A stretch of DNA of 64,000 nt from Desulfocapsa sp. (GCA_022712895.1 JAFLJS010000069.1:35034-99033); one strand, 5' to 3'. Shown: positions 8,855 through 63,082, counted from the first letter of the stretch. Numbers and translations: made by a program. Notes: generated from the sequence alone by a model not told the origin.

Positions 8855-9230
8855 ATGAACGCCGCAATTTACATAAAAAAACCCCACGAAGATGATAGTA
8901 AACAAGGACACTGGTTAACTGTCCAACGGGAACGGCTCCCCGAATACGCAAAAGAACAAAGCTGAAATACCACACATCTACGATGATGGCCACGCCTCAG
9001 CGACCAGGGTTAAGGCTGCAATTCCTGAACGCACAAAACTTAAAAATGATACCACGCAGGACTATATCGCATAGCTCACCCTCCGCCGATCACAACATAA
9101 AGGTCACAACTAGGCATTTAACGCCAGAAGATTCCTTGGCGGTACGACTCCCATAACTTACCGATACGACAAAGCGCTGCAAAAACCTGTGGTGAACCAG
9201 TTGCTCCTGGACGAGAAGAAAAGTCCGTGA
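8855..9230 (+). pseudogene. Shattered large serine recombinase (resolvase + recombinase domain) remnant
   Basis: Three collinear pieces: MNAAIYIKKPHEDDSKQGHWLTVQRERLPEYAKEQS* (8855-8965), IYDDGHASAT... (8976-9074) and RFLGGTTPITYRYDKALQKPVVN (9123-9230). They match AIY.R.S...Q..RL..YA, IY.D.G.S and GG..PYGY.YD...LV.N. Confidence 0.6.
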
Positions 9231-9295
9231 GAAAAGGTAGAAACCATCAGCACCAACAACACTCAACCTGTACGGGTAAACGAGTACGACTAAAA

Positions 9296-9865: not shown

Positions 9866-9876
9866 AACCGGAATCC

Positions 9877-10722
9877 CTATTGTTGTTTTTGACCACCAAA
9901 CAGCCCCTGCATCATTTGCATGGCCTGTTCCATCTGTTGCTGTTGCTCAGGAGTTATCTGCTCTTCAGCTTCCATCCGCTCTTGTTTTGCTTCGGATCGG
10001 AGTTTTTCGGCTCCCTCCGGATCCTTCAACATAGCAATAGTTTCTTGTGCCAGGCTACGTGCAATGGCATCGGATTGCGGATCAAGATATGGATCAATAC
10101 CTGCTGGCAACTTGAAATATTTATCAGCAACCTTTCCTTTTTTCACGGAAGTAGCTTCAATCTTCATGTTCATTCCCATCATATTACTTTCCACACGAAG
10201 CGGTATATCGGTACCGTGGATAGAATATGCGACTGTACCCATCATGTCTACCCGGTCACAGTTATAACCCAGGATTTTTTCAGCATTCTGCTGCACCTTA
10301 CCACCAAGCCCTTCAGCAACAGAGGATCCCATCTGCTCAACATTTTTATGAACCTGTTTCTTCTCCGCTTTAGAGAGTTTGTTGTACTCCTCAATCATAT
10401 ATTTTTCAGGATTCACGCTTTTACTGCCACTACGATTGGTAAGATCAAAACTGTATTCCCACTCAGGAGTTGTGATATCCACAGTTTCATTGACAATGGT
10501 CATGCCCATCATACTTGTTTTCGTGGTATGATAGCTAGCCACTTCACGCCCTGAATCACGTATATAAGTAGTCTCAGTTCCGTTTTCAACTCCGCTGATA
10601 GCGTATTCAATTGTTGCATTTTTAAATGGCAGTTTCATTTCCCAAGGGCTTTTACTTCCAGCCATCGCACTTACAGGGAAAACTAATAACAGTATACAAC
10701 TCAATAAAATCTTCTTGTTCAT
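9877..10722 (-). CDS. Exported hypothetical protein
   Basis: Long ORF; signal peptide from MNKKILLSC (10722); Met/Gln-rich tail. Confidence 0.7.
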   Translation of the reverse strand: MNKKILLSCILLLVFPVSAMAGSKSPWEMKLPFKNATIEYAISGVENGTETTYIRDSGREVASYHTTKTSMMGMTIVNETVDITTPEWEYSFDLTNRSGSKSVNPEKYMIEEYNKLSKAEKKQVHKNVEQMGSSVAEGLGGKVQQNAEKILGYNCDRVDMMGTVAYSIHGTDIPLRVESNMMGMNMKIEATSVKKGKVADKYFKLPAGIDPYLDPQSDAIARSLAQETIAMLKDPEGAEKLRSEAKQERMEAEEQITPEQQQQMEQAMQMMQGLFGGQKQQ

Positions 10723-10825
10723 GGACTCTCTCCAACCACTTTTTAGACCCAAGGTCATCTTTTTAAAACCAATATTTATGAATAATTTAGCAACTGTTGT
10801 CTATTTCTTCAATACTTTCCTGTTT

Positions 10826-11581
10826 TTATCCTTTTCGGTGGATGGCAAAAGGCCCCCAGGTCTGGCATACCGGCATTATCTCCAGCCTGTTAATATTGAC
10901 GTGGGCTGGTTGTGTTGCGATCCAATACACTGTCTTGGCAATATCTTCTGGTGTTAAAGGCTCCGTGCCCTCATAAACAGCGTCTGCTTTTTGCTGATCT
11001 CCCTGAAAACGTACCACTGAAAATTCAGATTCTGCGAGCCCCGGTTCAACATTTGAAACCCTTACTCCACTGCCATGAACATCTGCACGCAAGTTATTGG
11101 AAAACTGCTCCACAAAGGCTTTGGTGGCACCATAAGCGTTGGCTCCCGGATATGGCCAGGAGCCTGCGACGGACCCCATATTAATAATATGCCCCTGTCC
11201 ACGTTCCACCATGGATGGCAAAACGGCTCTGGTCATATACATAAGCCCTTTGATATTGGTATCAACCATCGTTTCCCAGTCGACAAGATCCGCTTCATAA
11301 GCAGGGGATAAACCGAGAGCGAGTCCCGCATTATTCAGTAACAGATCTATCTGAGCATGGGAACTGGGTAAACCAGCTATCAGTTGTTTCACCTCGCTTC
11401 CATTCCGAACATCACAAACTGCTGTATATACGGAAACATTTTTCAATTGTGCCTCAAGTTCCTGCAAACGCTCCTGCCGTCTGCCGCACAAGACAAGATT
11501 CCATCCATTTTTAGCCAACAATTCAGCGCAGGCCTTTCCAAAACCGGACGTGGCTCCTGTTATCAACGCAACTTTTGTCAT
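10826..11581 (-). CDS. SDR oxidoreductase, YdfG-like NADP-dependent 3-hydroxy acid dehydrogenase
   Basis: TGATSGFG, NNAGLALG, YGATK, HVNIN.LEIMP; GGAG SD before 11581. Confidence 0.85.
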   Translation of the reverse strand: MTKVALITGATSGFGKACAELLAKNGWNLVLCGRRQERLQELEAQLKNVSVYTAVCDVRNGSEVKQLIAGLPSSHAQIDLLLNNAGLALGLSPAYEADLVDWETMVDTNIKGLMYMTRAVLPSMVERGQGHIINMGSVAGSWPYPGANAYGATKAFVEQFSNNLRADVHGSGVRVSNVEPGLAESEFSVVRFQGDQQKADAVYEGTEPLTPEDIAKTVYWIATQPAHVNINRLEIMPVCQTWGPFAIHRKG

Positions 11582-11743
11582 TTGTTTTTCTCCGGAAAAA
11601 TGATGCTTTCGCAAGAATCTCAATTAGCAGATGGATTCGTATACGAGGCGTATGAATAGTATATCATTCCGATGTGCCAGAGGAGATCACAACTTATAGA
11701 ATATTTGCAGCAACGAAGTAAATAAAGAATTTTTCCGAAGCCA

Positions 11744-12361
11744 TCAAAAATAAGACGCCATAACTAAATCAGCACATTGATTGCCTAAATGGGCGAAATC
11801 ATAAACCAACTCTTTTTTGCGTATCCCATCAGCATCCACAAGGTTTGGGTAGATATTGATAAATGGAACCTGCAACTCCTCGCAATGTGCAGCATAGGCG
11901 GCATTCAGGAGTTCCGTATACGTTTTACGTTCTTCATCACTGGCAGTAAATGGATACTGCAAACCTTTTTTCCACTTCTCTGCATCAACTCCCAGGAAAT
12001 CTCCAGTGGGAACAACATTGAAGACATGTATTCGATAGCCTTGATTTCGCAATTTCGCAACATATGCAATATACTTTCTTGCAGTGACATCAATCAATCG
12101 TTCAATGGGTATTCCCAGCTGCTGATGCTTGTATTTGATATGGAGCCGTACATCCACTTCGCCGAAACAGAAGATCAGCTCTTTATCCTGTAGCGGAAAC
12201 AGGATACGCATGAGTTTTTTTTCGTGCCGCTCAATATTGAAGGCCGTTTTACCATCCAGCTTGTTATGACCTATAAGCACTCTGGAATCAGCAATTTGCG
12301 CATGGTTCTCAAAACATCGCCGTGAGTGGCTATCGCCTACTGCAAAAATTTTTCTGTACAT
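11744..12361 (-). CDS. SGNH/GDSL hydrolase-family protein
   Basis: Block I GDSH, FGEVD, C-terminal D..H (YDFAHL). Confidence 0.6.
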   Translation of the reverse strand: MYRKIFAVGDSHSRRCFENHAQIADSRVLIGHNKLDGKTAFNIERHEKKLMRILFPLQDKELIFCFGEVDVRLHIKYKHQQLGIPIERLIDVTARKYIAYVAKLRNQGYRIHVFNVVPTGDFLGVDAEKWKKGLQYPFTASDEERKTYTELLNAAYAAHCEELQVPFINIYPNLVDADGIRKKELVYDFAHLGNQCADLVMASYF

Positions 12362-12903
12362 GGAATATAGTGTATCCCTTCATATGACTCTTCACAATAA
12401 CAACATGACTCCCTGGCAAAAATGTTGTCGCCTACTCCTTCTGATTCACCTTTTCTCCAGGTGTGATGATTTCCCCATCCAGGATACAGTTGTTACAAGA
12501 GTCGATTGCTGAACAAACAAAAAGCACACAGGGACAAATGATCCAACTCTATATTGATACAAAGAGGATCTTTCGCGTTTTGAGTTTTCCGCTGACTTCA
12601 GGAACCTATTCGGGGGCTATATCAAGCTGCGGTACATGGTCTGCCGACGGGCGTAAGATGCGTCGCTGGACCAAACATTTAGTAAACCAAGGCTTGTTAC
12701 GATGGCAGGAGTTGGTGGCGTGAGTACAGAGGCCGGATTAGCCAATACGACGGCGACCCACAAAAGGGTAAATTACATGTGGATGTTTTTCACTTTGAGA
12801 GGACTGTTTCCATGCATGGTACAAAAGAAATACTTATCAATTAAATCTGACCTGACAGTTACAACCTGAAAACACTGTATCTGCCAGATCGTGAGACTAG
12901 AGG

Positions 12904-13395
12904 TTATTTGTAATTGGAGACATAATCTTTCATTTCAAAACTACCAAACATGTTTGATACCTGATGTCCTTCTTTGATCCAGTTGAGGATTCCGCCTTTC
13001 AGATTATAAACATTGGTATATCCGATATCTTTCAGGGCCTTGGTGGAAAGAGCTCCACGACCTCCTTTGAGGCAATAAATAACCAGAGTTGTGTCCAGCT
13101 CTTCAATTTTACGAGACATTGTTATCTCAAGAACTCCACGTGGAACTGTCATGTACTCATCTGCCTGAATTTTTATGGCTGCGACTTCCTTCGCTTCACG
13201 CACATCAACTAAAATAAAGTCATTATCATCTTTAATCCAAGTGGCAAGCGTTGCATGATCGATAGACTTTATCTCTGGCATGATAGCTTTAATGCTTTTC
13301 TTAAAACGTTGTTCTGGTGTTATTTTGTCCTCAGCAAAAGCTGGAGCTGCAAGAAGAGTGACGGCGACCAAGAAAACAATTACTTTTTGAAACAT
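12904..13395 (-). CDS. Exported rhodanese-like domain protein
   Basis: Signal peptide; LVDVRE, VPRGVLE, active-site loop YCLKGGRG, VYNLKGGI..W. Confidence 0.85.
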   Translation of the reverse strand: MFQKVIVFLVAVTLLAAPAFAEDKITPEQRFKKSIKAIMPEIKSIDHATLATWIKDDNDFILVDVREAKEVAAIKIQADEYMTVPRGVLEITMSRKIEELDTTLVIYCLKGGRGALSTKALKDIGYTNVYNLKGGILNWIKEGHQVSNMFGSFEMKDYVSNYK

Positions 13396-13428
13396 ACTGT
13401 TACCTCCCGAAAAGGTGTTAGGATGAAC

Positions 13429-13474
13429 CGGATCATAAACTCGGCTTGAAATATTTCAAAGCGGTTGTGATCCG
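13429..13474. promoter_or_regulatory. Long hairpin with a central perfect palindrome TTGAAATATTTCAA upstream of the rhodanese gene
   Basis: CGGATCA (13429-13435) pairs with TGATCCG (13468-13474); 14-bp palindrome at 13446-13459 resembles an FNR/CRP-type TTGA-N6-TCAA box. Confidence 0.45.
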
Positions 13475-13676
13475 TTAAATGAAGCCGATACATTTGGCCT
13501 CTGATTACTTGATTATGCTAGATGGCTCTTGTGTTGAATGAACGGGGATATTGAATTTTTCATTACCTCCTGCCTGCCCGAAAATGAGATTGCCATTACA
13601 TTTATGCATCTCTGCCTTCGTGACAGCCTTTAGGAAGAGACAATAAAAGATTAGGTGAAGTCCTAGATGCTCGGAG

Positions 13677-14690
13677 TCATAACTCCTGGATACATACCTC
13701 CTTGTTTATCATGGCACGAATAGTGCGATAGAGGACTATGGCTATAACGAGGCAAGTGAGTGCGAGCAGAAGTGCAGAGAGATATTTAAAAAAGATGATG
13801 CCGGTAAGTTTGTAGTACAGAACTGTGCTGATAGTGGCTGCTCCCAGAGGAAAGGTGTATGCCCACCAGGAAATAAAGAACGGCACTTTCCGAAACTGGT
13901 CTGTCATGGTGAGCAGTTGAAGCAGAGTAAATATCCCGAAATAATAAAGTACCCTGCTGAAGTTATCGAAACCGCCAGTGAGCGCAGTATAGGATACAAA
14001 GCCAATGGCAGGTGGTGCGATCAGTATGAAAAGAGTGGGTAACAGCTTGCTGGGAATAGGATGATTAAAGATCATACGGTTGATGACTATGGTGAAAAGT
14101 ACTATCCAGTAGATTATGCCTATACTGAAGAAAAACCAGGATATCTCTGGTGATGCGTGGACGACGCCTGATATGGGAACCAGGATTGTTCCCACAACAG
14201 GGATGAACCACGCAGGATTGATCATCTTTATATCAAACTCTTTATGAAACCAGACAGATATTATTTTCAGCAGTAAAAACAAATGAATAGGTGTTGCGAC
14301 ATACCAGAGCACGGCGGATATCTCTTTATTTATGTCGAGATAACCTATGGAAAGCAGTAAAAGGCTTATGGTATATGCCGGGAAGAAGTTCATCCGAACA
14401 GGATGCTTGAATTCCATCACGACTTCGTCGGGGTAGCGAATAAATTTTAATACATAAAAAATAGTAAGAGTGATGAATAGGAGAGTGACTGCGTAGAGAA
14501 GGTAAACGCCTGCACCGAACAGATTGACCTCTATAATAGCCTCAAAACGCATAAGAGCGATGGCAAATCCACAAAGCCCCATGACCGATCCAAAAAGGGT
14601 GATGGGCAAAAATTTCAGGCGGGAGAGTTCAGCATTTGTTTCTTTAGTACTCACAGTTATTCCTTTTGCTTTTGGACGGTTCCGAGGCAA
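13677..14690 (-). CDS. SLAC1/TDT (TehA-like) anion channel
   Basis: About 10 TM helices; F..VMGL.G, HPVR.NFFPA..I, PAWFIP.VG, LFIL.APPA, WWAYTFPL. Start may be GTG at 14654. Confidence 0.9.
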   Translation of the reverse strand: MPRNRPKAKGITVSTKETNAELSRLKFLPITLFGSVMGLCGFAIALMRFEAIIEVNLFGAGVYLLYAVTLLFITLTIFYVLKFIRYPDEVVMEFKHPVRMNFFPAYTISLLLLSIGYLDINKEISAVLWYVATPIHLFLLLKIISVWFHKEFDIKMINPAWFIPVVGTILVPISGVVHASPEISWFFFSIGIIYWIVLFTIVINRMIFNHPIPSKLLPTLFILIAPPAIGFVSYTALTGGFDNFSRVLYYFGIFTLLQLLTMTDQFRKVPFFISWWAYTFPLGAATISTVLYYKLTGIIFFKYLSALLLALTCLVIAIVLYRTIRAMINKEVCIQEL

Positions 14691-49453: not shown

Positions 49454-51019
49454 ATGAAAAGTAACAATATCACACCTGAACAACTGGAAGACCTGAGTTG
49501 TTTGTATGAAATAACCAAAAATCTGGCCTCATCAATTGATCTGAAGAAGTGTTTGAGCGAAACAATGGAAACTATTGGCTCCATGAAAAACATGGCCAAT
49601 GGGACTGTAACTATCATAAATCCATTAACCGGTAGACTGGAAATAGAAGTAGCGCCCGATATCAATGCGGAAGGAAGAAAAAGAGGGAAATATCAAATAG
49701 GAGAGGGTATTACAGGAAGAGTGGTTGCCTCAGGTGAACCGATTATCGTCCCCCATATTGCAGAAGAACCGATGTTCTTGAACAAAACAAGATCACGAGG
49801 AGATCTGAACAATCAATCAAGATCTTTTCTTTGTGTTCCTATTCGTGATGGAAAGCAGGTGATCGGAGCCTTATCAGTTGATAGAAATTATAAGAATGGA
49901 ATAACTGATCAGGCGGACATGGATTTACGTTTTTTGACGGTGCTAAGCAGTCTAATCGCACAGACGACACATAGAATTCAAACAGTAAATCAGGAGCAGG
50001 AAGAATTACGATACGAAAACCTTAAACTAAAGCGTGAACTTTCCGAAAAAAACAAAATCAACGATATACAGGGTAAATCATCTAAAATGCAGGAAGTGTA
50101 TGAGATGATATACCGAGTGGTAGATTCTAACGCAACGGTATTACTAAGAGGAGAATCAGGCACAGGAAAAACACTTGTTGCTAAAGCATTACATTACAAT
50201 TCCAAACGAAAGCATAAACCGTTCATTGTCGTAAATTGTTCAGCACTCCCAGAAACACTGCTCGAAAGCGAGCTGTTTGGCCACGAAAAAGGTGCATTTA
50301 CTGGGGCTACCGAGCGCAAAGCAGGACGATTTGAGTTAGCAGAGGGCGGTACCTTATTTCTTGACGAGATAGGTGAAATAACACACGCTGTACAGGTAAA
50401 ACTGTTAAATGTAGTACAAGAACGAAGCTTTCAACGATTGGGCTCTGCAAAATCTATTACTTGTGATGTGAGACTTGTGGCGGCAACTAATCGAGACCTC
50501 GAGAAAGCAGTGCAGGATAAATGTTTCAGGGAAGATCTTTATTATCGCCTCAATGTATTCCCGGTATATATGCCACCTTTACGAGAAAGACGAACAGATA
50601 TTCTACTGCTTGCCGAATATTTTCTAGAGAAGTATGCAAAAGAGAATGCAAAAGATATTCAAAGAATTTCAACACCTGCGATCGATATGCTGATACAGTA
50701 TCATTGGCCTGGAAATGTCCGTGAATTGCAAAACTGTATGGAACGCGCAACCCTTATCTGCGATAATGACACAATCAAAAGCAATCATTTGCCGCCAACC
50801 CTCCAGACATCAGATTCCATAACATCGGACAAAAACCCACTTTCCCTATCCGCAGCTGTGGAAAATTTTGAAAAAGATATTATTATAGATGGACTCAAGA
50901 AGAATCGCGGCAACCAGACGCAGACAGCAAAATTTCTGGACACAAGCCTTCGAATAATAAATTACAAGATTCATCAATATAATATCGACCCCAAAACGTT
51001 TAAAATTGAAAAACTATGA
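49454..51019 (+). CDS. NifA-like sigma54-dependent activator (GAF - AAA - Fis HTH)
   Basis: GEGITGRV (GAF), [36 protein letters not shown]-terminal NQTQTA..L. Not called nifA because no nif genes are in the window. Confidence 0.9.
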
Positions 51020-51600
51020 AGCTTCTCCTCCATGTGTGTTGTGCTCCATGTTCCACATACACCTTAACAAAGCTACGTAAACAGGATATCGATGTTGCAG
51101 CCTATTTTTACAACCCAAATATCCACCCTTATCGTGAATTTAAAAAACGCCTGGATACACTAAAGGAGTTTGCAAAACAAGCAGACCTTGAGCTCCTGAC
51201 CGAAGATGACTACGGTTTGACAGAATATTTACGTAAAGTCGTATTTAATGAAAAACTACGCTGTTCTATCTGTTACGACATGCGCCTGGAAAAAACAGCC
51301 AAGCAGGCTGTGAAATCCGGCGCTGACGCCTTTACCTCAACCCTCCTCTACTCCCGTTATCAAAATCATGAGAATATCGTCACAATCGGCAAACAAATTG
51401 CAGAAACGTATGGAATAGATTTTTATTATGAGGATTTTCGAAAAGGATGGCAAGAAGGTATAGACCAGGCAATAGATATGGAACTCTACCGCCAACCTTA
51501 TTGTGGATGTATTTACAGCGAGCAGGAACGATACGACAATAAATTGAAGAAGAAGTTACGAAAAGAACGTAAAAAAGCGGCAAATAGCGTCAATTCGTAA
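51016..51600 (+). CDS. queH: Epoxyqueuosine reductase QueH
   Basis: [33 protein letters not shown]. Confidence 0.92.
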
Positions 51601-53837: not shown

Positions 53838-54620
53838 TCAGCTTTCTCTTTTGTTGTGTTTTTCAATGGCCACAAAGTTAAGGGTACAATGTACTGTCAT
53901 CAGCGGGAAGATTAAAGCGATGATAAAAATATTAAGAACCGGAATCATACTGAGAAATGCGGGAAATATTCCAAGTCGGAAGGCCTGTTTTTTATGATTT
54001 CCTAACCAGCTAATTTTTCGTTTCAAACTCCAGCGTCGGCGTGAAGAGGGATAATCGACAAACATCAATGCCGAATAGAAACTGTAGAGCAGAAAAACAA
54101 CGACCTGTCCTACACCCGGAATAAAATTGGCCATCAGTGCCGCAATCGTAACTACGACCCCAAACATTCCTATCTTAAGCCCCTCCCATAAATCGATCAA
54201 TAGCCCTTTAACATTCAAGGCAGCATCTGCTTCAAACTCCTGGCCTTCATGTTTCTTTTCAGCAGCAGTACTGAGGAAAACGTAACCCGGAGCTGATAAA
54301 CTATAAGCAAGAAGAAATGCGAGATAAAAGGCAACTATGCGGCTAATGATCAAAAAACACCAGTGAACAACTTCCCATCCCAGATATTTAGTCCACCCCC
54401 AGATACCTTTGGCTTCAGGTTCAGCCAAGAAAAAACTGCCCGTCAGCCCATCCACAAAATCTAGGGTGATTGCATATCCGGCCCAGGTAAAAACAAAGGT
54501 GATAAGAATCAAAATCAAGCTCCATGCCATTAACCGCTTGGAACGAAGGAGAAAAGCAAGGGAATAGGAAAGTGGCAGCCAGGCAGGTGGTGCTAATATT
54601 TGTTTGGTATTATTTTGCAT
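53838..54620 (-). CDS. EI24/CysZ-like membrane protein
   Basis: Multi-TM; L.AP....LS...E, FIP..GQ, ..DYP..RR, IP.LN. Confidence 0.7.
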   Translation of the reverse strand: MQNNTKQILAPPAWLPLSYSLAFLLRSKRLMAWSLILILITFVFTWAGYAITLDFVDGLTGSFFLAEPEAKGIWGWTKYLGWEVVHWCFLIISRIVAFYLAFLLAYSLSAPGYVFLSTAAEKKHEGQEFEADAALNVKGLLIDLWEGLKIGMFGVVVTIAALMANFIPGVGQVVVFLLYSFYSALMFVDYPSSRRRWSLKRKISWLGNHKKQAFRLGIFPAFLSMIPVLNIFIIALIFPLMTVHCTLNFVAIEKHNKRES

Positions 54621-54690
54621 GATGCCTATAATAGGATCAATTCAGAGCTGAGTAAAGGCTTCACTTTAAAAAAGTTGGTAGATTTTTATC

Positions 54691-56052
54691 ATGGCAAAAA
54701 AACAGGAAACGGCATTTGTATGCACCGATTGCGGTGCCGATTTTTCCAAATGGCTGGGGCAGTGCAGTGTCTGTAAAGAGTGGAATACTGTAAAAGAAGT
54801 TCGCCTTGGCAGAAGTTCCCCAAGGCACGTTAGTGGTTATTCCGGTAAACAGAGCCGAGTACAATTGCTTTCGGAAGTAGATCGCAGCCGTGCAGTACGG
54901 CTATCAACTGGTATTGTTGAATTTAACCGGGTTTTAGGGCAGGGGATTGTTCGCGGTTCCGTGGTGCTGATTGGCGGTGCACCAGGGGCCGGAAAATCCA
55001 CATTATTACTCCAGGCCCTTGCCAACAGTGCAGCAAACGGAGTGCCAGTTTTATATGTCTCTGGGGAAGAGTCGCCACAACAGATAGCGGAACGGGCTGA
55101 TCGACTCGGGCTCCCTGCTGCAAATATCAAAATGCTTGCTGAAACCTCTGTCGAGGAAATCTGCAAAATAATGGATCAGGAGAAACCAGAAATTGTGGTT
55201 ATTGATTCTATTCAGGTGGTTCACACAAAGGCATCAGAATCAGCTCCCGGATCAATCTCTCAGGTACGTGAGTCAGCAGCTACTCTTACCCACTATGCGA
55301 AAGCCACAGGAACTTCAATCTTTATGGTTGGTCATGTCACCAAGGATCAATCCCTGGCTGGCCCCATGACCTTAAGTCATATTGTGGATGCGCAGGTAGT
55401 ACTTTCTTCCACCGACGATGCGAGATATCGAATCCTGCGAGCCGATAAAAATCGTTTTGGCAGTGTGGGTGAGCTGGGCTTTTTCGCCATGACTGACCGT
55501 GGCCTGAAAGAGATCAAAAACCCCTCAGCCATGTTTCTCTCACGATCCGGCACTCCAGCATCAGGAAGCGCAGTAACAGTAATCTGGGAAGGCACCAGGC
55601 CTCTGCTCGTTGAGATTCAAGCCCTGGTCACAGAAAGTCAATCAGGAAACCCCAGACGTCTGGCTGTGGGAATGGATCAGAACCGAATTGCCATGTTGCT
55701 GGCGGTACTTGCCAAACATGGCGGGCTTGCCACCACAAGTGATGAGGTGTATGTAAATGTGGTGGGAGGAATAAGAGTGGATGAAACCAGCTCTGATCTT
55801 GCTGCCATGGTGGGCATTGTCTCATCGCTACAAAACAGGGTCATTCCCCAGGATACACTGTTTTTTGGCGAAATCGGACTCAACGGTGAAATCCGACCAG
55901 TGGCCAACGGTGAAGCCAGGCTGAAAGAAGCAGCAAAACATGGTTTCAAACGGGCTGTGATTCCGAAAGCCAACACTCCCCAACAACCCGTAAAAGGGTT
56001 GAAGATCGTGGCTGTGGAAAGCCTGGTACAGGTCCTGGATGTGCTCTACTGA
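54691..56052 (+). CDS. radA: DNA repair protein RadA/Sms
   Basis: Zn finger CTDC...CSVC, GAPGAGKSTLLLQ, YVSGEES, IDSIQ, KNRFG, Lon-like C-terminus. Confidence 0.95.
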   Translation: MAKKQETAFVCTDCGADFSKWLGQCSVCKEWNTVKEVRLGRSSPRHVSGYSGKQSRVQLLSEVDRSRAVRLSTGIVEFNRVLGQGIVRGSVVLIGGAPGAGKSTLLLQALANSAANGVPVLYVSGEESPQQIAERADRLGLPAANIKMLAETSVEEICKIMDQEKPEIVVIDSIQVVHTKASESAPGSISQVRESAATLTHYAKATGTSIFMVGHVTKDQSLAGPMTLSHIVDAQVVLSSTDDARYRILRADKNRFGSVGELGFFAMTDRGLKEIKNPSAMFLSRSGTPASGSAVTVIWEGTRPLLVEIQALVTESQSGNPRRLAVGMDQNRIAMLLAVLAKHGGLATTSDEVYVNVVGGIRVDETSSDLAAMVGIVSSLQNRVIPQDTLFFGEIGLNGEIRPVANGEARLKEAAKHGFKRAVIPKANTPQQPVKGLKIVAVESLVQVLDVLY

Positions 56053-56066
56053 AAGAGAACTATACT

Positions 56067-56228
56067 ATGAAAAAAATATGCCTCTTGATAAGCATAACAT
56101 TTTTTAGCTGGATTGGCTGGTGGCTGGGTGCTCATATCGGCATTATGACCGCATATGTCAGCAGTGTCATTGCCGGTGTAGTTGGCGTCTATTGTGGAGT
56201 TCGCTTTAACCAACATTACCTAAACTGA
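56067..56228 (+). CDS. Small (53 aa) two-TM membrane protein, below the ORF-track cutoff
   Basis: MKKICLLISITFFSWIGWWLGAHIGIMTAYVSSVIAGVVGVYCGVRFNQHYLN; fills the radA-56264 gap. Confidence 0.65.
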   Translation: MKKICLLISITFFSWIGWWLGAHIGIMTAYVSSVIAGVVGVYCGVRFNQHYLN

Positions 56229-56263
56229 TTTCCCCTCAACACCAACCGGAGGATTTTTCGATC

Positions 56264-56863
56264 ATGGATTTTAAAAGACATCTTGAAAACGCATGGAATA
56301 ATACCTTACAATTTATTGTACCCGTTATTCTTCTCACCCTAACGCAACTGATTGTTATCACATTAAGTTTCGGAATTCTGGCGCCAGTAACAACTGCCGG
56401 ATATATGCAGTCTCTGCTCCTGGCACAGCGTGAAGGACGCGAACCCAAAATAGGTGATCTCTTTTCTGAGATGCGATTATTTCTGCCCCTTTTTGTGTTC
56501 GGACTCCTTGCCATCATGGTGACCATCCTTGGTTTTTCCATGCTGATCCTTCCCGGCTTTGCCGTTGCCGGATTTCTCATTTTTGCCACAATCTACATGA
56601 TGCCCCTTATGACCGATAAGGACATGGGACTGATGGATGCTCTCAAAGAGTCCTGGCGCATGTCAACCAGAGCCCCAATAAGTAATCAGATAATTTTAAT
56701 GGTGCTCTACATGGTGATTATTGCCCTGGGAGGATCAATTGCTGTGGCTGTCCTCTTCACTCAGCCCCTTGCCACCTTTCTTGCTTTATCTGTGTATGAG
56801 GAACGGCTCAAGGGTGAACAACACGCGACACCACCACCAATTGAAGACACCAGCAAAGACTGA
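56264..56863 (+). CDS. Conserved-type hypothetical membrane protein
   Basis: About 4-5 hydrophobic segments; GGA SD-like context; co-oriented with neighbours. Confidence 0.7.
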   Translation: MDFKRHLENAWNNTLQFIVPVILLTLTQLIVITLSFGILAPVTTAGYMQSLLLAQREGREPKIGDLFSEMRLFLPLFVFGLLAIMVTILGFSMLILPGFAVAGFLIFATIYMMPLMTDKDMGLMDALKESWRMSTRAPISNQIILMVLYMVIIALGGSIAVAVLFTQPLATFLALSVYEERLKGEQHATPPPIEDTSKD

Positions 56864-56984
56864 AATACAAAGAACAGACAGGCTGTAGAAACTAACGTTT
56901 TCGGGGAAATCGACTACCACCCTGAATGCCTGCTGCGAAAACATTTCACACAACAAACATACCAGGTTAACAGCCTGCACTTTC

Positions 56985-59900
56985 ATGCTTTATCGACCAG
57001 AATGTAAACACATACCACAAGCAGGCAAGAAACATTTCGTGGAACAAAAGGGCTGGCAGAGCATAGTCTTACAAGATGCTGTACTACTGATTCAACCTGA
57101 AATTCCGGACTGGATTGTTGTTTCCAAAGAAGCGTCCGCTCTTCTTGATGGAGAGCAGCATGGTACCAAAGATTGGTACATGCGCAAACTCCTGGAAAAT
57201 GCACTGTCAATAGAATCACCCGCAACCTATCAGGGAAGACACTCTGCTCTAAAAATGGGACAGTTAAAAGAATGCTGGTTCCATCTCACCGATAACTGCA
57301 ACCTCAGCTGCCGCCACTGTCTTTTTTCAGCATCTCCAGCAAAAAGCAGAAGCATTACTCCGGAACTACTGTACAAAACCGTCGATGAGGCTCTAACCCT
57401 TGGCTGCAAACTCTTCTCTTTTACTGGTGGCGAACCTTTTCTGTATCCAGATTTTTTGCCATTCTTACAGCGGCTTTTACATCAAAACCCGGACTGCCAT
57501 GCTGCAATCCTCACCAATGGCATGCTGCTTTCACAGTCTGTGGATATTTTAAGAGACATGGACAGACTCCATTTGCAAGTGAGTCTGGATGGCCTTGAGG
57601 TAAGCCACGATCATCTGCGCGGCACAGGCAGTTATGCAAAACTGATGAGTCATCTGCAATCATTACAAAAAGCGAATATCCCATTCACTCTCTCCGTTGC
57701 AATCAGTACAGAAAACATTGCCGATCTCCCCAAACTTATGGAACTTGCATCAACACTGGGAGCTGCAAGCATCCATCTGCTCTATCATTTTATCCGCGGC
57801 AAAGGCAGCAAAGAACAGTTTGTCAACCCATCAGCAATCTACCCCAAATTACGGGAAGCATGGCTGCTGGCAGATACATTAGGCCTACAGATCGATAACA
57901 TCGAGGCCCTGCGCAGCCAGGTTTTCTCAACTCCCGGAACCCGTTATGACCTTTCCAATACAGGCTGGGAATCAGTTGCCATAGGCCCGGACGGCATTGT
58001 CTATCCTTCCCCAGCCCTGGTTGGTCTGGAACAATGCAATTGCGGTAACCTTGATGCAGGTCTTGCCGAAGTCTGGAACAACAGCAGTGTTTTACAGGAA
58101 ATCCGTAAGAGCAGTCTCCTTGATTCACCCGAATATATGGCAAGCCCTCTGAGATTCCTGGTCGGTGGTGGTGATATTGACCACAGTCTGATGCATGGTG
58201 GTAAATGGGTGGGACACGACCCTTACGTGGAAATCTACAATCAAATTGCACTCCAACTCATTGAGGATCAGGCAAGCCTCTATTGCGCAAAGGGACAATC
58301 CATCCACCTGCGCATGGGAGATGTTCGACACGATTGCCTTGAGGAGGGCGAAGAGGGGACAGAGGTCTCACTTACCCACTGCAACTGTTTAATATCGCTG
58401 GCCTCTGATACTGGGCATAGTTCTGTGCGTGAATTTTATGGCCAGGCAGCACTCATTGCCAACAAAGATATCATCAACCCCCTGGCTCCCGCCCAGCAAG
58501 AGGCAGTATTTGTCCCTGATTCAGCCAAAGAACATTCCTATGGCTGCGGTAGTCCGGTCACTGACGGAGCGCCCCAAAAAGGTGAGATCCTAGTGGATCT
58601 TGGTTCAGGCGGTGGAGTGGAATGTTTTATGGCCTCAAAAGCCGTGGGAAAAACAGGAAAAGTTTTCGGCATCGATATGACCGACGAAATGCTACAGCTT
58701 GCCAATAGTGCAAAGACTGAAGTTGCCCTTCGTCTTGGGTATCAAAACGTAGAGTTTAAAAAAGGATTTTTAGAGCAGATCCCACTTGCAGATAATCTTG
58801 CCGATGTTGTTATTTCCAACTGTGTTATCAATCTCAGTCCGGATAAACGTATGACCTATCAGGAGATCCACCGTATCCTGAAACCGGGCGGTAGACTGAT
58901 TGTCTCCGATATCGTCACAGATATTGCCATCCCTACCCAGATCAAAAACAACGTTCGCTACCGAGGTGAATGCCTTGGGGGGGCCATGCAGCAAGAGGAG
59001 CTGGTGGCAATGATGGAAGCCGCAGGATTTGTCTCCATCCACTTTATCAAACGCTTTCCCTACCGCCAGGTAGAGAACATGGATTTCTTTTCCCTCACCT
59101 ATGAAGCAATCAAACCAGCAACCGTGCTTGGAGAGCAGGTGCAGGCAGTATACAGAGGCCCCCACGGAGCTATTTACACCGAATCTGGAACATTATTACC
59201 GAAAGGGCGGGTCGCCACAATCACTGCTCAGGAGGCATCCCTTCTTGATGATTCCGTTTTTCTGTTAGATAAACAAGGAGCTGTCACCAATATTCAGATG
59301 GAAAACTCCTGCTGCGCGCCACAGACAGATATCACGGCCATGGAAACAAGCTGCTGCGAGCCTGCAAACACTTGTTGCGATACACAGGAGAAAAAAACGG
59401 AAGGCTGCATGGTCTGCGGAGCAGAACTCCACTATTTTACAGATATTCGTGAGCTCTCCTGCAGTTATTGTAAGCGGAATTTTCCAGCCAATGGTTGTTG
59501 CACAGCAGGCCATTTTGTCTGCGACAGTTGCCACCAGGAAGATGGACTGGAAGTGACCAAAGCCATCTGCAAATGGATAAGGGAAAAGGATCTTATCACC
59601 CTCCTCAAACTCATCCGTAGCCATCCAGCCATCCCCATGCATGGCCCTGAGCATCATGCCATGATCCCCGGAATCATATTGGCAGCATTTCGAAATTCCG
59701 GAGGAAACATAACAGAAGAAACCATCAACATCGGTATAGATCGGGGAGCACAGATCCCGGGTGGTGCCTGTGGTTTCTGGGGTGCATGCGGTGCCGCAAT
59801 TGGGGCGGGAATTGCCGTTTCCACCATCCTTGCAGCAACTCCCTTAACGCCTTCTGCCAGGCAGACAGCTCAGTCTTTTAGTGCAAAAATATTATCAAAA

Positions 59901-60125
59901 ATTGCAAAGTACAAAGGCGGGCGCTGCTGTCAGCGTGAAACCTGGTTGGCACTCACTGAGACAGCAAGACTATCAGAAGAAGTATTGACCATTCCACTCA
60001 CTGCCAACGATACGCTGGAATGTGCGCAATACTTGAAAAACAAAGAATGCATTCGTAAAGCATGCCCTCTCTGGGACATGCGGGTCAAAAATCTTGAGCC
60101 TGCACTCCAGGCTGTAAGTTTATGA
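56985..60125 (+). CDS. Fusion protein: radical SAM + degenerate SPASM + ArsM-like SAM methyltransferase + Cys-rich DUF5714-like domain
   Basis: CNLSCRHC, FTGGEP, VSLDG; SYGCG.P, DLGSGGG, VISNCVINLSPDK, LKPGGR, GECLGGA; CMVC, CSYC, C..GHFVCDSCH, MHGPEHH, GG.CGFWG.CGAAIG, CCQR, C...CP. Confidence 0.85.
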   Translation: MLYRPECKHIPQAGKKHFVEQKGWQSIVLQDAVLLIQPEIPDWIVVSKEASALLDGEQHGTKDWYMRKLLENALSIESPATYQGRHSALKMGQLKECWFHLTDNCNLSCRHCLFSASPAKSRSITPELLYKTVDEALTLGCKLFSFTGGEPFLYPDFLPFLQRLLHQNPDCHAAILTNGMLLSQSVDILRDMDRLHLQVSLDGLEVSHDHLRGTGSYAKLMSHLQSLQKANIPFTLSVAISTENIADLPKLMELASTLGAASIHLLYHFIRGKGSKEQFVNPSAIYPKLREAWLLADTLGLQIDNIEALRSQVFSTPGTRYDLSNTGWESVAIGPDGIVYPSPALVGLEQCNCGNLDAGLAEVWNNSSVLQEIRKSSLLDSPEYMASPLRFLVGGGDIDHSLMHGGKWVGHDPYVEIYNQIALQLIEDQASLYCAKGQSIHLRMGDVRHDCLEEGEEGTEVSLTHCNCLISLASDTGHSSVREFYGQAALIANKDIINPLAPAQQEAVFVPDSAKEHSYGCGSPVTDGAPQKGEILVDLGSGGGVECFMASKAVGKTGKVFGIDMTDEMLQLANSAKTEVALRLGYQNVEFKKGFLEQIPLADNLADVVISNCVINLSPDKRMTYQEIHRILKPGGRLIVSDIVTDIAIPTQIKNNVRYRGECLGGAMQQEELVAMMEAAGFVSIHFIKRFPYRQVENMDFFSLTYEAIKPATVLGEQVQAVYRGPHGAIYTESGTLLPKGRVATITAQEASLLDDSVFLLDKQGAVTNIQMENSCCAPQTDITAMETSCCEPANTCCDTQEKKTEGCMVCGAELHYFTDIRELSCSYCKRNFPANGCCTAGHFVCDSCHQEDGLEVTKAICKWIREKDLITLLKLIRSHPAIPMHGPEHHAMIPGIILAAFRNSGGNITEETINIGIDRGAQIPGGACGFWGACGAAIGAGIAVSTILAATPLTPSARQTAQSFSAKILSKIAKYKGGRCCQRETWLALTETARLSEEVLTIPLTANDTLECAQYLKNKECIRKACPLWDMRVKNLEPALQAVSL

Positions 60126-61067
60126 TCAATGAATCTTCCATAATCGAAGATTCATATTAGAAAGTGCCTCCTTCCGTTCTTCGGCACTCAATTGATTCGA
60201 TATCATTGGCACGGTAATCTTCATACTGTTGTCCAACATCAGCTTTTTAGTGATGGTTTCATAGCCTGGACGAGTAACAGTAAGTATATGATCACCCGGC
60301 AAAACGTCCACTCCCTCAATGGGACTTGAACCCAGCAGAATCCCATCAAACTCAATCATTGCAGGATCGGCACTGGTGGCGATCCATATTTTAATTTTTC
60401 CAGCATCATTCAGTTTCCCTTTCAACTGTTTTTCAATACCTGGAACTGCCGCAGCAATGGCTTCCTGATAAAGATCAAGCAGCGCATCCTCTCCGATTTC
60501 TATCTGCACACTGGCAGTCTGTCTAAATTTTCGTGACGCCTTCCCTTCCTCAACAGCCATCACCCCACCATTTACAGTGTCCAATGCCTGAAGCATAACC
60601 CGTAAATTTAAGGTGATGAACTCTGCCGTATAGCCTGCCTGGTTGATTTTCTCTTTACTGGTGGATAGTGCCAGCAGACTTCCACGAATCAGGGCATCAC
60701 CCTGTAATGATCGCGCGGCATTGAAAAAAGTGGGGCTGAGTGGCGTGCGCCTCTCACGGGTAGCAAAAAAGGTGTCTGCCACCGGATCAGAACCATCACG
60801 CGGCTGTAAGGATTCGATCTGACGGACGAAATCTCTGCGATCAATCAATATAAATTCTGGAGAACTGAGTAGAGACTGTTGTAAAAAATAAGGCCCCTTT
60901 TCGGTAAATGCTTTTGAGTTCAGCTTTCCTGTGAGGGCCGAATCTACAGTTCCGCCAGTTTCATCAGTAAAATCGAGCATAATAACCCGCACTGGTCGTG
61001 CATTGGCGCTAATGGTCATACAGAGACAAACAAGAGAAGTAAGAAGAAGGTAATTTCGTAATTTCAT
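60126..61067 (-). CDS. Exported CsgG/TolB-N-like protein with C-terminal PEGA domain
   Basis: Signal peptide; F.LIDR.D, D..IRGS; PEGA-like S.DPA.IE.DG...G..P...V..G.H...V...GY. Confidence 0.65.
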   Translation of the reverse strand: MKLRNYLLLTSLVCLCMTISANARPVRVIMLDFTDETGGTVDSALTGKLNSKAFTEKGPYFLQQSLLSSPEFILIDRRDFVRQIESLQPRDGSDPVADTFFATRERRTPLSPTFFNAARSLQGDALIRGSLLALSTSKEKINQAGYTAEFITLNLRVMLQALDTVNGGVMAVEEGKASRKFRQTASVQIEIGEDALLDLYQEAIAAAVPGIEKQLKGKLNDAGKIKIWIATSADPAMIEFDGILLGSSPIEGVDVLPGDHILTVTRPGYETITKKLMLDNSMKITVPMISNQLSAEERKEALSNMNLRLWKIH

Positions 61068-61250
61068 AGAGATCTGCTCCTTTCTGAGAGGATTTATTCT
61101 TCAAAGAGTACTGGCAACAGGGGGGAAAGGCAAATAAAATTCATATCCTGTGGATGCAATTGCCATTCGGAGGGAAAAACGATATGTTAACATATGAAGC
61201 ATACACATCCCCAGATACTCTAACAAGCCGCTACAATAGGAGGTTATCTT

Positions 61251-61868
61251 TTGAAATCAACACTCTACATATCACTTACCGGAGCAGCTATCCTTTCCCT
61301 GTTACTCCCCGGATGTTCCGCATTCCGAACCTCGACAACGGATGTCAGCCCGGAAAACCTCGAACACTACAGGGCCGAATATGACGCCTCTGATATGCGC
61401 AAAATCACCAACTCCGTCGTGAATAAAATCCTGTTCAGCCCCTTTCTCAACCAGCAACCCTCCCCACCGGTAATGACCATTGCAGGAGTGGAAAACAGGA
61501 CCCGTGAGTATGTGGACACAAAAAATCTCACCGATAGGATGCGTACCCAGCTCCTGCAAAGCGGTAAGGTTCAGTTTGTGAATAGTGCAAGGAGGAATGA
61601 CCTCCTCAAGGAACAGGGTTACCAAGCGGCACATGCTGATCCCAATACCATGGCAACACTCGGCCAGCAGATGGGAGCAAAATATATGCTCACCGGATCG
61701 CTCACCCAGATGACTCAAAAAACAGGAAAACAGGTTCGATTGTCCAAGCAAAAACTCAACTATTATAAATTAACCATCGAAATTACAGATCTTACTTCCA
61801 GCCTCATTGTGTGGACAACCGAGGAAGAGTTTGCCCGTCAGGAATCCACTCCTCTTATTGGCTGGTAA
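61251..61868 (+). CDS. lpoB: LpoB-family lipoprotein (PBP activator-like)
   Basis: AGGAGG SD + TTG; lipobox LLPGC; N.T.E.vDT..lt..mr..L..SG.v.Fv; GA.Y.L.G; lvW. Confidence 0.75.
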   Translation: MKSTLYISLTGAAILSLLLPGCSAFRTSTTDVSPENLEHYRAEYDASDMRKITNSVVNKILFSPFLNQQPSPPVMTIAGVENRTREYVDTKNLTDRMRTQLLQSGKVQFVNSARRNDLLKEQGYQAAHADPNTMATLGQQMGAKYMLTGSLTQMTQKTGKQVRLSKQKLNYYKLTIEITDLTSSLIVWTTEEEFARQESTPLIGW

Positions 61869-61876
61869 GACTTTTG

Positions 61877-63082
61877 GTGCTGGCTTACCCATTCCATATT
61901 TTTGTACGCTCAGTTTTTGCTGTTTCTTGCCTGTGCTTACTGGCATCCTGCTCTTCTCGTAATCTACCTGCGGCCCGCCATGCTTTTTACCAAGGCCAAT
62001 ATGAACAATCAAAAGAAGCAATCGGCACAGAGGCCGTTGATGGCAAAGATTCCGTTCTGATCCTGATGGAACGTGGAGCTATTTATCAGGCCGAAGGCAA
62101 GTATGAACAGAGTTCCGTGGATTTTATTCTGGCCGGCGATATCCTGGATCTGTTGCAGACTTATTCCTTATCAGAAGGTGCCGCTTCGTGGGTCACCAAC
62201 GACACAGTATACTCCTTTGAAGGAGCACCTTTTGAGCGGACACTGCTCAACTCTATGACTGCCTTGAATCATCTGGCAATGAACAACTGGGAGGATGGTG
62301 GGGTAGAAGCCAGACGCATTATTCATTCTCTTGCAGATGACCAGCGGGGGGAAGATTACCCGAAAGATGCTTTTTCACGCTATCTTGCAGCTTTTATCCT
62401 GCAACAGACCGGTGATTTCACCAATGCTAAAATGCAGTATCAACTGGCTGATGAATTACGGCCAGATCTGCAAATTGATGAAAAAGGCCTAATACATGAG
62501 GAAGGTGAAAACCTCCCAGAAACACTTCCGAATAGCCGGGAATTGATCTGTTTTTTTCTCATTGGCCGTTCCCCAACCATACGGGAACTACAGGGAGAGT
62601 TCCGAGATTCAATATTCCCGCCACGTATCCAGCTCCATGCTAATGGAGAACTGCTTGGCCATGCGACAATACTCAGCAGCGTACGCAATCTGGCACTGCT
62701 CACCTGGAATATTGAAGCACCAGCGAGAATTGCAAAGATGGCGGCCAGAATTGCAGCTAAAGAGGCCATGGCCAGATCTCTGGAAGAACAGGATGCAGCC
62801 CTTGGAGCACTGGCCCGAATCATTCTCCTCGGCATACTGGAACGACCTGATTTCAGACGCTGGGAAACCCTTCCACGCTGGCTAGGGGTGGCAAGGGTCT
62901 CTTGCCCTGTAGAGCTTTCCTCGTTTGATGTAACCATTCAAAGAGGAGGAAATATTGTTGGCGAAACCATTACCGTGCAGCAGCCTATTGTGCAGCGTGG
63001 GAATATATATTTCTCATTTGTTCGAGATCTTCCGCAATTTAATTCACACAAGAGAGAAAAAGAGATCGACAAACAGTTATAA
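61877..63082 (+). CDS. COG3014-type lipoprotein (usual partner of LpoB-family genes)
   Basis: Lipobox LLASC; YSFEGAPFER...N...ALN.L....E...VEARR; D.R.WETLP. ORF track start is 61811; GTG 61877 is more plausible. Confidence 0.7.
   Translation: MLAYPFHIFVRSVFAVSCLCLLASCSSRNLPAARHAFYQGQYEQSKEAIGTEAVDGKDSVLILMERGAIYQAEGKYEQSSVDFILAGDILDLLQTYSLSEGAASWVTNDTVYSFEGAPFERTLLNSMTALNHLAMNNWEDGGVEARRIIHSLADDQRGEDYPKDAFSRYLAAFILQQTGDFTNAKMQYQLADELRPDLQIDEKGLIHEEGENLPETLPNSRELICFFLIGRSPTIRELQGEFRDSIFPPRIQLHANGELLGHATILSSVRNLALLTWNIEAPARIAKMAARIAAKEAMARSLEEQDAALGALARIILLGILERPDFRRWETLPRWLGVARVSCPVELSSFDVTIQRGGNIVGETITVQQPIVQRGNIYFSFVRDLPQFNSHKREKEIDKQL

Follow-up and report, generated by a model that had tools for sequence, protein, structure and literature searches.

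What might a single polypeptide do with a radical S-adenosylmethionine (SAM) core, a methyltransferase of the ArsM type and a DUF5714 domain? The question is posed by an uninterrupted open reading frame (ORF) at 56985..60125 (+) in a 64,000-nucleotide stretch of Desulfocapsa sp. DNA (GCA_022712895.1 JAFLJS010000069.1:35034-99033; the window), which encodes one protein of 1046 residues. From the N to the C terminus it consists of an RRE-like segment, the radical SAM core, a degenerate SPASM-like domain, the ArsM-like methyltransferase, a linker with CC repeats, a double zinc ribbon and DUF5714 (Table 1). Our tentative answer, drawn from the sequence and from analogy to characterized systems, is that this fusion may be a self-contained enzyme that uses SAM in two steps on a soft trivalent metalloid, most likely a substrate of the As(III) type. 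A first-pass annotation had already proposed a three-module fusion, and a Pfam scan, which matched 14 families at E ≤0.1, finds all three modules in the one ORF: Radical_SAM (PF04055) covers residues 101-255 (E 8e-23; 81.8 bits against a cutoff of 29.5), Methyltransf_31 residues 532-681 (E 5e-30) and DUF5714 (PF18978) residues 860-1030 (E 2.9e-60; 203 bits against a cutoff of 26), the last along profile positions 3-173 of 173. Every motif that the annotation had listed lies where it had placed it, as verified codon by codon. The C terminus reads ...NLEPALQAVSL; the start codon can be placed only to within about 18 residues, the ATG at 56985 being without a clear ribosome-binding site and an in-frame GTG at 57039 being an alternative. 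Conservation among homologs starts near residue 24.

The architecture is more than a chance juxtaposition. A full-length search returned at least 120 clusters (at 90% identity) of the same architecture, 53-89% identical to the query, the named ones almost all from Desulfocapsa, Desulfocapsaceae, Desulfurivibrionaceae and other Thermodesulfobacteriota, with one labelled Methanococcoides. Among the 576 related stretches found in a scan of species-representative genomes, the complete three-domain form occurs in Desulfobulbales only, including the cultured Desulfurivibrio dismutans and Hydrosulfovibrio ferrireducens, and a metagenome scan added at least 45 further complete copies. The copy in the window is nearest to Desulfocapsa (83-89% identity), and its sequence is present in marine and sediment metagenomes. 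Our impression from the hit lists, which is not a count, is that of a core gene of Desulfobulbales. The motifs themselves are not due to chance either, since their cysteines and histidines are 97-100% conserved in 124 full-length three-domain homologs; this includes C862, H886, H890, H891, C929, C935, C981, C982, C1013, C1022 and C1027 of DUF5714. The CC linker, the zinc-finger stretch and the DUF5714 domain that the first-pass annotation had named are thus real features, conserved across the family. The radical SAM cysteines C105, C109 and C112 are invariant in 151 homologs, namely these 124 and 27 two-domain relatives described below, and the GGEP motif and many other core residues are invariant across the 124. 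Public records carry generic names, such as 'DUF5714 domain-containing protein', 'methyltransferase domain-containing protein' or 'MoaA/NifB/PqqE/SkfB family radical SAM enzyme/SAM-dependent methyltransferase', and a literature search found no paper that describes the fusion or assigns it a function. Occasionally the gene is split, once between methyltransferase and DUF5714 (L169) and twice between radical SAM part and methyltransferase (L113 and L174). In the latter two the radical SAM part lies directly upstream, so that proteins which seemed to combine methyltransferase and DUF5714 as an independent architecture are halves of split genes. In Candidatus Electrothrix (cable bacteria; P0241, P0243, P0247 and P0260) we found pieces of the methyltransferase domain only, at 57-60% identity, among them a 325-aa protein in a 4.6-Mb contig; in these bacteria, the three-domain gene may have been split or have decayed.

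Which radical SAM enzymes does the N-terminal part resemble? By its CxxxCxxC motif and its match to PF04055 it belongs to the superfamily, and the invariance of this motif, of GGEP and of core residues at 53-89% identity argues for a functional enzyme. The AlphaFold2 (AF2) model of residues 1-475 (pLDDT 81) comprises an N-terminal beta/helix subdomain, the radical SAM barrel and a C-terminal auxiliary domain. Its best Foldseek match is the sactipeptide synthase CteB (5wgg_A; E 1e-15, TM score 0.66-0.70, about 456 of 475 residues aligned), with further matches to SkfB, SuiB, anSME (TM score 0.72, normalized to target length), TigE, PqqE and ChlB. Among the best 25 of 72 NCBIfam families matched, MftC, ScmF, StsB and AhbD match this part best, all far under their cutoffs. 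Because of the CteB alignment and these matches we assign residues 1-475 to the architecture of RRE, core and SPASM-like domain. With CteB/anSME-type enzymes, the fusion shares the fold of residues 1-450, that is, the RRE-like subdomain, the TIM-barrel core and the SPASM-like C-terminal domain; it differs from them in lacking both the seven-cysteine SPASM motif (CxxCx5Cx3C and others) and a gene for a peptide substrate. This motif ligates two auxiliary [4Fe-4S] clusters. In the three-domain family, 0% of the 124 proteins have cysteine at the aligned positions 327, 332, 384, 387, 393, 397 and 415, and the Pfam scan of the fusion did not match PF13186 (SPASM). The first-pass annotation had cited ArsS and ArsL as radical SAM partners of ArsM; the domain here is neither ArsS- nor ArsL-like but a CteB/anSME-type domain that lost its auxiliary-cluster cysteines. 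Neither ArsS nor ArsL (NF040542) is among the best 25 NCBIfam families for the whole protein or for this part (a weak match is possible), DUF3641, the cysteine-rich domain of ArsS, is not among the 14 Pfam families, and TrsS is not among the top NCBIfam matches for the radical SAM part. The RCCLKC tail of ArsL is not found at the C terminus of the fusion, where only the internal RCC at residues 980-982 is similar.

The methyltransferase, by comparison with NCBIfam, groups with ArsM-type families only. Its score on NF008823 is 225-229 bits against a cutoff of 263, and the next matches are the arsinothricin and arsenosugar ArsMs and ArsM-fusion selenoproteins; on NF045667 (DVU_1556 type) it reaches 74 bits against a cutoff of 155. 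Two crystallized ArsMs, CrArsM (5evj) and CmArsM (4kw7), share 37-38% identity with the core, at E values of 1e-34 and 7e-33. The fusion also has the C-terminal domain of ArsM, and C521, C613 and C663 align to the arsenic-binding Cys72, Cys174 and Cys224 of CmArsM and are invariant in the 124 three-domain and 27 two-domain proteins. In other respects the domain departs from canonical ArsM/AS3MT enzymes: it is embedded between other domains, and the first ArsM cysteine (CmArsM Cys44, in the motif LCCP) is replaced by isoleucine or valine and asparagine, the sequence being DI(I/V)NP in the query and in all six three-domain proteins aligned. Across all 124 proteins the corresponding columns hold 0% cysteine, whereas LCCP is kept in two-domain fusions and in stand-alone ArsM-like relatives. 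The ArsM assignment of the first-pass annotation therefore holds for the family and for three of the four cysteines, but neither for the first cysteine nor for the NF008823 cutoff; its upstream HCNC motif (residues 465-468) is not equivalent to the canonical first cysteine. In a neighbor-joining tree of the methyltransferase core, the three-domain proteins and the forms split between radical SAM part and methyltransferase make up one clade, the two-domain fusions are intermixed with stand-alone ArsM-like proteins of about 320 aa, and the two crystallized algal ArsMs, the only characterized ones included, lie outside. An additional cysteine, Cys547, is conserved in 100% of the three-domain and 26 of the 27 two-domain proteins, and does not occur at that position in the crystallized ArsMs.

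The loss of the first cysteine bears on the substrate. In ArsM, each of the four cysteines is needed for the conversion of As(III) to the monomethylated MAs(III), while Cys44 and Cys72 are dispensable for that of MAs(III) to the dimethylated DMAs(III), and Cys174 and Cys224 bind organoarsenicals (PMC6138428). The disulfides formed need an external, thioredoxin-like reductant (PMC6138428; PMC8552651). By this published mechanism, the loss speaks against inorganic As(III) as the species that is methylated and favors an arsenical that is already substituted.

What follows the methyltransferase is a low-complexity linker rich in S, P, A, E, G and T with vicinal cysteine pairs, of which family members have 1-4 in a linker of 15-171 aa (median about 35), and then two zinc-ribbon-type sites with invariant ligands. 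The zinc ribbon and DUF5714 are predicted to fold into a beta-hairpin and an all-helical bundle (pLDDT 92.5, pTM 0.90). Foldseek found no solved structural relative of DUF5714 (best E 0.64), and a PDB profile search of the module yielded a weak match to the HypA zinc ribbon only. On its own, the module finds 4,304 proteins, mostly stand-alone combinations of zinc ribbon and DUF5714 of 230-290 aa from diverse anaerobes, and 49 stand-alone members have the invariant cysteines and histidines of the fusion's DUF5714 in common with it. NCBIfam links DUF5714 to the N-terminal half of MbdU, a 'metal-binding double selenoprotein' with the motif CU, and, weakly, to the C-GCAxxG-C-C family. The fusion is not itself an MbdU protein: it scores 134-140 bits on NF045648 against a cutoff of 600, matches model positions 2-271 of 468 only, and its ORF has no in-frame TGA, two selenocysteines being expected of MbdU. 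Nor do its radical SAM and methyltransferase domains belong to the TrsS or DVU_1556-type sets. A literature search found no paper containing 'DUF5714'.

A guide to this arrangement is a two-domain form of about 800-860 aa, which consists of radical SAM and ArsM-like parts and is homologous to the fusion over residues ~34-790 (31-35% identity overall, 45-50% in the methyltransferase core). It is found in Scalindua and other anammox bacteria, Thermodesulfovibrionia/Nitrospirota, Vicinamibacterales, Gemmatimonadota, Thermoanaerobaculia and an archaeon. Both forms have the layout of RRE-like segment, core, SPASM fold and ArsM in common, as well as the invariant H465 and C468 at the junction. The two-domain proteins, however, keep the SPASM-type cysteines (327, 332, 353, 384-x2-387-x5-393(-x3-397) and 415, 76-100% conserved) and LCCP, are without zinc ribbon and DUF5714, and often sit in apparent operons. 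Of those listed, most have a free Cys-Cys-COOH as their C terminus, and the tails of the Thermodesulfovibrionia type are mostly rich in CxC; in the three-domain proteins the CC element lies inside the chain, ahead of the zinc ribbon and DUF5714. Since the two-domain relatives retain the SPASM cysteines and LCCP and the three-domain family does not, the Desulfobulbales lineage has given up one redox cysteine pair as well as the residues that ligate two auxiliary clusters, and has acquired a module in which about 20 cysteines and histidines are conserved.

The two-domain genes have neighbors of their own. In six Scalindua loci (L054, L057, L060, L062, L064 and L071; ~2500-10500) the gene is the last of an apparent operon with a PHO4/PiT transporter, a GT2 glycosyltransferase, a DUF3179 protein and a polytopic membrane protein of about 500 aa without Pfam match; AhpD/CMD-like, DUF547 and TlpA-like genes lie nearby. 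The DUF3179 family has known selenoprotein members. This operon suggests a glycoconjugate or lipid pathway linked to an oxyanion. In the Thermodesulfovibrionia (L073, L075 and L077-L080; ~7800-13700), a B12-binding radical SAM gene (~494 aa) directly follows the fusion, and just beyond it lie either PhoU_div and PHO4 genes or a CysG/HemD-like gene and one for a phosphonate-type binding protein. In a metagenome-assembled genome of Thermoanaerobaculia, a CobW GTPase gene overlaps the two-domain gene.

Is the association of DUF5714 with radical SAM chemistry peculiar to the fusion? In five of about ten independent stand-alone contexts examined, a radical SAM enzyme is fused or adjacent to DUF5714, and these partners represent four subfamilies, TrsS included. 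In Desulfatiglans (L081), a 400-aa enzyme that passes the TrsS cutoff (NF045646) lies 4 bp upstream of DUF5714. A 665-aa chain in L163 (5983-8720) joins DUF5714, Zn_ribbon_HMPTM and a TrsS-type radical SAM domain (536 bits against a cutoff of 490), and stands between a Fer4_20/FAD/CCG oxidoreductase before it and a DVU_1556-family methyltransferase after it. A methyltransferase is near DUF5714 in L081 and L163 alike, where the partners pass TrsS or DVU_1556-type cutoffs. In L085 (5417-10009), L086 (3673-8616) and L151 (308-4771), which come from two unrelated organisms, a BioB-like CxxxCxxC/BATS protein overlaps DUF5714, and the genes continue with a NifU_N-Mrp/ParA fusion, TrmO and a metallo-beta-lactamase; L085 and L086 have a DUF192 gene in between and Nitro_FeMo-Co and CbiA/Fer4 ATPase genes upstream. 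This cluster looks like a locus for the maturation of a metallocluster or cofactor. A 459-aa ORF in L151, considered as an MbdU-like protein, proved to be an artefact of ORF calling. L172 has an NrdG-like activase with DUF5714, and in L081 and L087 DUF5714 stands beside operons for xanthine-dehydrogenase-type Mo hydroxylases, which include DsrC and a cysteine desulfurase, and beside Fer4_20/FAD/CCG oxidoreductases. DUF5714 seems to accompany radical SAM enzymes in general, be they TrsS, BioB-like or NrdG-like, which keeps readings without arsenic open. The name '7,8-dihydro-6-hydroxymethylpterin dimethyltransferase', which JGI gives to some DUF5714 proteins, does not describe the function of the domain and probably derives from DUF5714 fusions to HMPTM/TrsS-type radical SAM domains.

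A parallel is provided by TrsS (radical SAM), MduS (methyltransferase) and MbdU (containing DUF5714), for which a review table (PMC13188914) gives a single 2025 study (Haft & Tolstoy) as the source of their naming as selenoproteins; our literature search found 'MbdU' and 'TrsS' only in a review table. Like the fusion, the MbdU/TrsS/MduS/DVU_1556 families combine radical SAM chemistry with a class-I methyltransferase and a metal-binding protein of the DUF5714 type, as seen in the L081 neighbors and the L163 fusion. Unlike it, they use a Tes/HMPTM-like rather than a SPASM-like radical SAM enzyme and a methyltransferase of another subfamily, and they include selenoproteins, whereas the fusion is all-cysteine. 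Set against the present fusion, the TrsS/MduS/MbdU set and the L081 and L163 neighbors imply that radical SAM enzyme, methyltransferase and DUF5714 were combined at least twice from non-orthologous parts.

The surroundings of the three-domain gene contrast with those of its two-domain relatives. Around 84 complete loci, 357 flanking genes fall into 191 clusters, the commonest of which is seen at 18 loci; there are no conserved operon partners, and none of 143 Pfam families occurs in more than 4 clusters. Local synteny involves radA, RNase H and DUF2058, together with Fpg/MutM-like and HemY-like genes (the last two identified by eye), and varies between subclades. In the window, no promoter- or terminator-like site is seen in the 121-bp gap to the upstream membrane protein gene, which is possibly co-transcribed with the fusion. 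On the other side, a convergent gene at 60126-61067 (-) ends at the base after the fusion's stop codon and leaves zero intergenic space. Given the lack of conserved partners, this gap, the Rfam result reported below and the abutting convergent gene, we regard the three-domain gene as a solitary, self-sufficient unit.

The alignments, models and gene neighborhoods show the architecture and how far its residues are conserved, what was lost and gained relative to the two-domain proteins, the structural class of each domain and the recurring link of DUF5714 with radical SAM enzymes; beyond this, we infer a substrate, an order of steps, a kind of product and a role for DUF5714. Vicinal cysteines, in the CC-repeat arm and/or in Arg980-Cys981-Cys982 of DUF5714, would capture the metalloid as a thiolate complex, in the manner of the ArsL tail. 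The radical SAM domain would reductively cleave SAM, and the resulting carbon radical would add to the lone pair of the metalloid to form a carbon-metalloid bond. The mono-substituted R-As(III) might then be bound between Cys613 and Cys663 of the ArsM-like domain and methylated with a second SAM. Finally, zinc ribbon and DUF5714 could take over electron relay or disulfide reduction, roles that would have gone with the SPASM clusters and with the cysteine pair at the N terminus of ArsM, and could also hand over the substrate. A radical step ahead of methylation is the order to which the missing Cys44 equivalent points, a cysteine needed only for inorganic As(III), and this order mirrors the action of ArsL and then ArsM. 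In that system, experiments show that As(III) binds to ArsL's RCCLKC tail, which product formation requires and SAM cleavage does not, and ArsM methylates the ArsL product (bioRxiv 10.1101/2024.02.01.577332). The fusion would work most like this arsinothricin pair, in which a radical SAM enzyme likewise forms a C-As bond on cysteine-tethered As(III) before ArsM methylates, in the order proposed here; it differs in being one chain with a third domain, in its SPASM-like radical SAM part and in lying outside any ars operon. Arsenosugar synthesis also pairs ArsM with a radical SAM enzyme, ArsS, that adds a SAM-derived radical to arsenic, but there methylation comes first and ArsM has four cysteines, the first of which the fusion lacks, and ArsS (TIGR04167, with the cysteine-rich DUF3641) belongs to a different radical SAM subfamily. 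For all its likeness to ArsL and ArsM, the fusion is not a member of ArsL, ArsS, canonical ArsM, SPASM proper, MbdU or TrsS. The idea of the first-pass annotation that one polypeptide binds As(III) or another soft metal(loid), methylates it and adds a radical-derived group thus stands as regards the fusion and the ArsM-type site, while methylation of inorganic As(III) is disfavored by the lost first cysteine.

Several observations weigh against this two-step metalloid enzyme. The radical SAM part is unlike ArsS and ArsL, and its nearest structures are peptide-modifying enzymes; the methyltransferase stays under the ArsM cutoff (229 against 263 bits), as do its closest stand-alone relatives (237-255 bits). 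HCNC, through C466 and C468, might functionally take the place of the absent ArsM cysteine, and the case for the order of steps would then be weaker. The gene lies among housekeeping genes, unlike typical arsenic islands. The first-pass annotation had noted that the window holds no ars operon, and no ars families recur around the 84 homologous loci either. Added support also failed to come from Rfam, which yielded no riboswitch or regulatory RNA in 54000-61500 at E ≤1, from a search for expression, in which the sequence turned up in DNA metagenomes only, or from about 170 loci inspected for selenocysteine variants at conserved cysteines, where none was seen and in-frame stops were ends or real splits. 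As neither ars genes nor conserved partners accompany the 84 loci, the link to arsenic rests on the protein's own residues, on the analogy to ArsL RCCLKC and on the neighbors of the distant two-domain relatives (PiT/PhoU, phosphonate-binding and CobW).

Could the protein instead mature a metallocofactor or handle a chalcogen, as a fused, cysteine-only counterpart of the TrsS/MduS/MbdU selenoproteins? DUF5714 would then hold a metal ion, sulfur or selenium, which methyltransferase and radical SAM domain would modify or transfer, for example in methylthio- or methylseleno-type insertion or in the maturation of Mo/W or Fe-S enzymes. This is a rather doubtful proposition, although much of the DUF5714 context speaks for it: the Mo hydroxylase operons with DsrC and cysteine desulfurase, the BioB-like, NifU/Mrp and Nitro_FeMo-Co genes in two unrelated organisms, the partners that pass the TrsS and DVU_1556 cutoffs, the place of DUF5714 as one half of MbdU with its faint C-GCAxxG-C-C similarity, and the solitary, housekeeping-like location of the three-domain gene with no ars genes nearby. 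It does not account for a methyltransferase that is of the ArsM and not the DVU_1556 type and retains an invariant metalloid-binding cysteine pair, or for a radical SAM domain that is not of the TrsS type; moreover, no candidate client enzyme is conserved near the gene. A maturase of the sactipeptide or anSME type, which would modify the cysteines of a peptide or of its own CC linker and then methylate the modified residue, is unlikely. The structural and NCBIfam matches of residues 1-475, the RRE-like subdomain and the flexible, cysteine-rich segment in cis would fit such an enzyme, but the auxiliary-cluster cysteines that these enzymes use are lost, no precursor-peptide gene or conserved small ORF is adjacent (a convergent gene abuts the 3' end), the ArsM-type cysteine triad would be left without a role, and a self-modifying, single-turnover enzyme would be unusual. 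It is more improbable still that we are dealing with an ordinary, detoxifying arsenite methyltransferase, with a non-catalytic radical SAM domain and other domains that are accessory to metal sensing, chaperone function or stability. Such a protein would share with the fusion the exclusive matches to ArsM-type families and the ArsM C-terminal domain, and cysteine-rich tails are common As(III) binders; yet CxxxCxxC, GGEP and core residues of the radical SAM domain are invariant across the 124 homologs, the first cysteine, needed for As(III) methylation, is gone, and an ars operon is absent.

What would follow if the two-step metalloid reading were true? To our knowledge, only two radical SAM routes to carbon-arsenic bonds exist, those of ArsS and ArsL, and what ArsM-like genes do in strict anaerobes is a matter of debate. 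The fusion, a single-chain enzyme both widespread and strongly conserved in a major group of sulfur-cycling sediment bacteria, brings radical chemistry together with an ArsM-type site that is seemingly tuned for an already alkylated metalloid. It would thus represent a third organo-arsenical (or antimony or selenium) pathway, and possibly a hidden source of organo-metalloids in sulfidic sediments, and would provide the first function for DUF5714, a domain with more than 4,000 proteins and no solved structure. A more general formulation is possible, if speculative: an enzyme of an unrecognized kind with which Desulfobulbales would constitutively make a product or cofactor that is an organo-metalloid or organo-chalcogen compound, and DUF5714 as a new type of domain, rich in Cys and His, that is dedicated to radical SAM enzymes in a redox or substrate-carrier role and can replace SPASM clusters. 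DUF5714 would then be a new radical SAM accessory module common to TrsS, BioB-like and NrdG-like systems. The clean swap, in which the SPASM clusters and the first ArsM cysteine were lost and DUF5714 was gained, is open to mutational and domain-swap work.

Table 1. Features of the fusion gene and its upstream neighbor, in window coordinates.
Feature	Coordinates	Strand	Basis or remark
Fusion protein, complete ORF, 1046 aa	56985..60125	+	Start possibly GTG 57039
N-terminal subdomain (beta-strand/helix), aa 19-74; likeness to RRE structural only	57039..57206	+	AF2 model, Foldseek to CteB; without Pfam match
Radical SAM core, aa 96-300, with GGEP SAM-binding motif	57270..57884	+	Pfam, conservation, AF2 model
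CxxxCxxC, C105/C109/C112	57297-57320	+	Codon check
Degenerate SPASM-like auxiliary domain, aa 304-443; C353 the only cysteine kept	57894..58313	+	AF2, Foldseek, alignment
Low-confidence junction, aa 451-468; invariant C451, H465, C466, C468	58335..58388	+	Conservation, AF2 model
HCNC motif	58377-58388	+	Codon check
ArsM-like SAM methyltransferase, aa 476-775, including ArsM C-terminal domain	58410..59309	+	Pfam, NCBIfam, PDB ArsM alignment
Lost first ArsM cysteine pair, Ile497-Asn498	58473..58478	+	Alignment; relatives have LCCP
YGCG, Cys521	58545	+	Equivalent to CmArsM Cys72
Cys547 in GGGVEC	58623-58625	+	Adjoins SAM-binding glycine loop
SNCV, Cys613	58821	+	Equivalent to CmArsM Cys174
ECLGGA, Cys663	58971	+	Equivalent to CmArsM Cys224
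Low-complexity linker, aa 776-807; CC776/777, CC790/791, CC797/798	59310..59405	+	CC pairs at 59310, 59352, 59373
Double zinc-ribbon-like module, aa 808-850; C808, C811, C826, C829 and C839, H843, C846, C849, H850	59406..59534	+	Invariant ligands
DUF5714 all-helical domain, aa 860-1030	59562..60074	+	Pfam, conservation, model
MHGPEHH in DUF5714	59640-59657	+	Codon check
GGACGFWGACG in DUF5714	59769-59789	+	Codon check
RCCQR in DUF5714; R980-C981-C982	59922-59930	+	Codon check
Upstream 199-aa membrane protein	56264..56863	+	121-bp gap; weak UPF0259 match; conserved upstream only in Desulfocapsa subclade

Two further observations concern the rest of the window. The convergent gene at 60126-61067 (-) forms, with a lipoprotein-like gene at 61251-61868 (+) and a gene at 61811-63082 (+), a downstream trio that is also found in three other Desulfocapsa loci (clusters 29-31). 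Unrelated to the fusion, an ORF of 194 aa at 51016-51600 begins with what we take to be a likeness to the cysteine motif of the epoxyqueuosine reductase QueH (DUF208).

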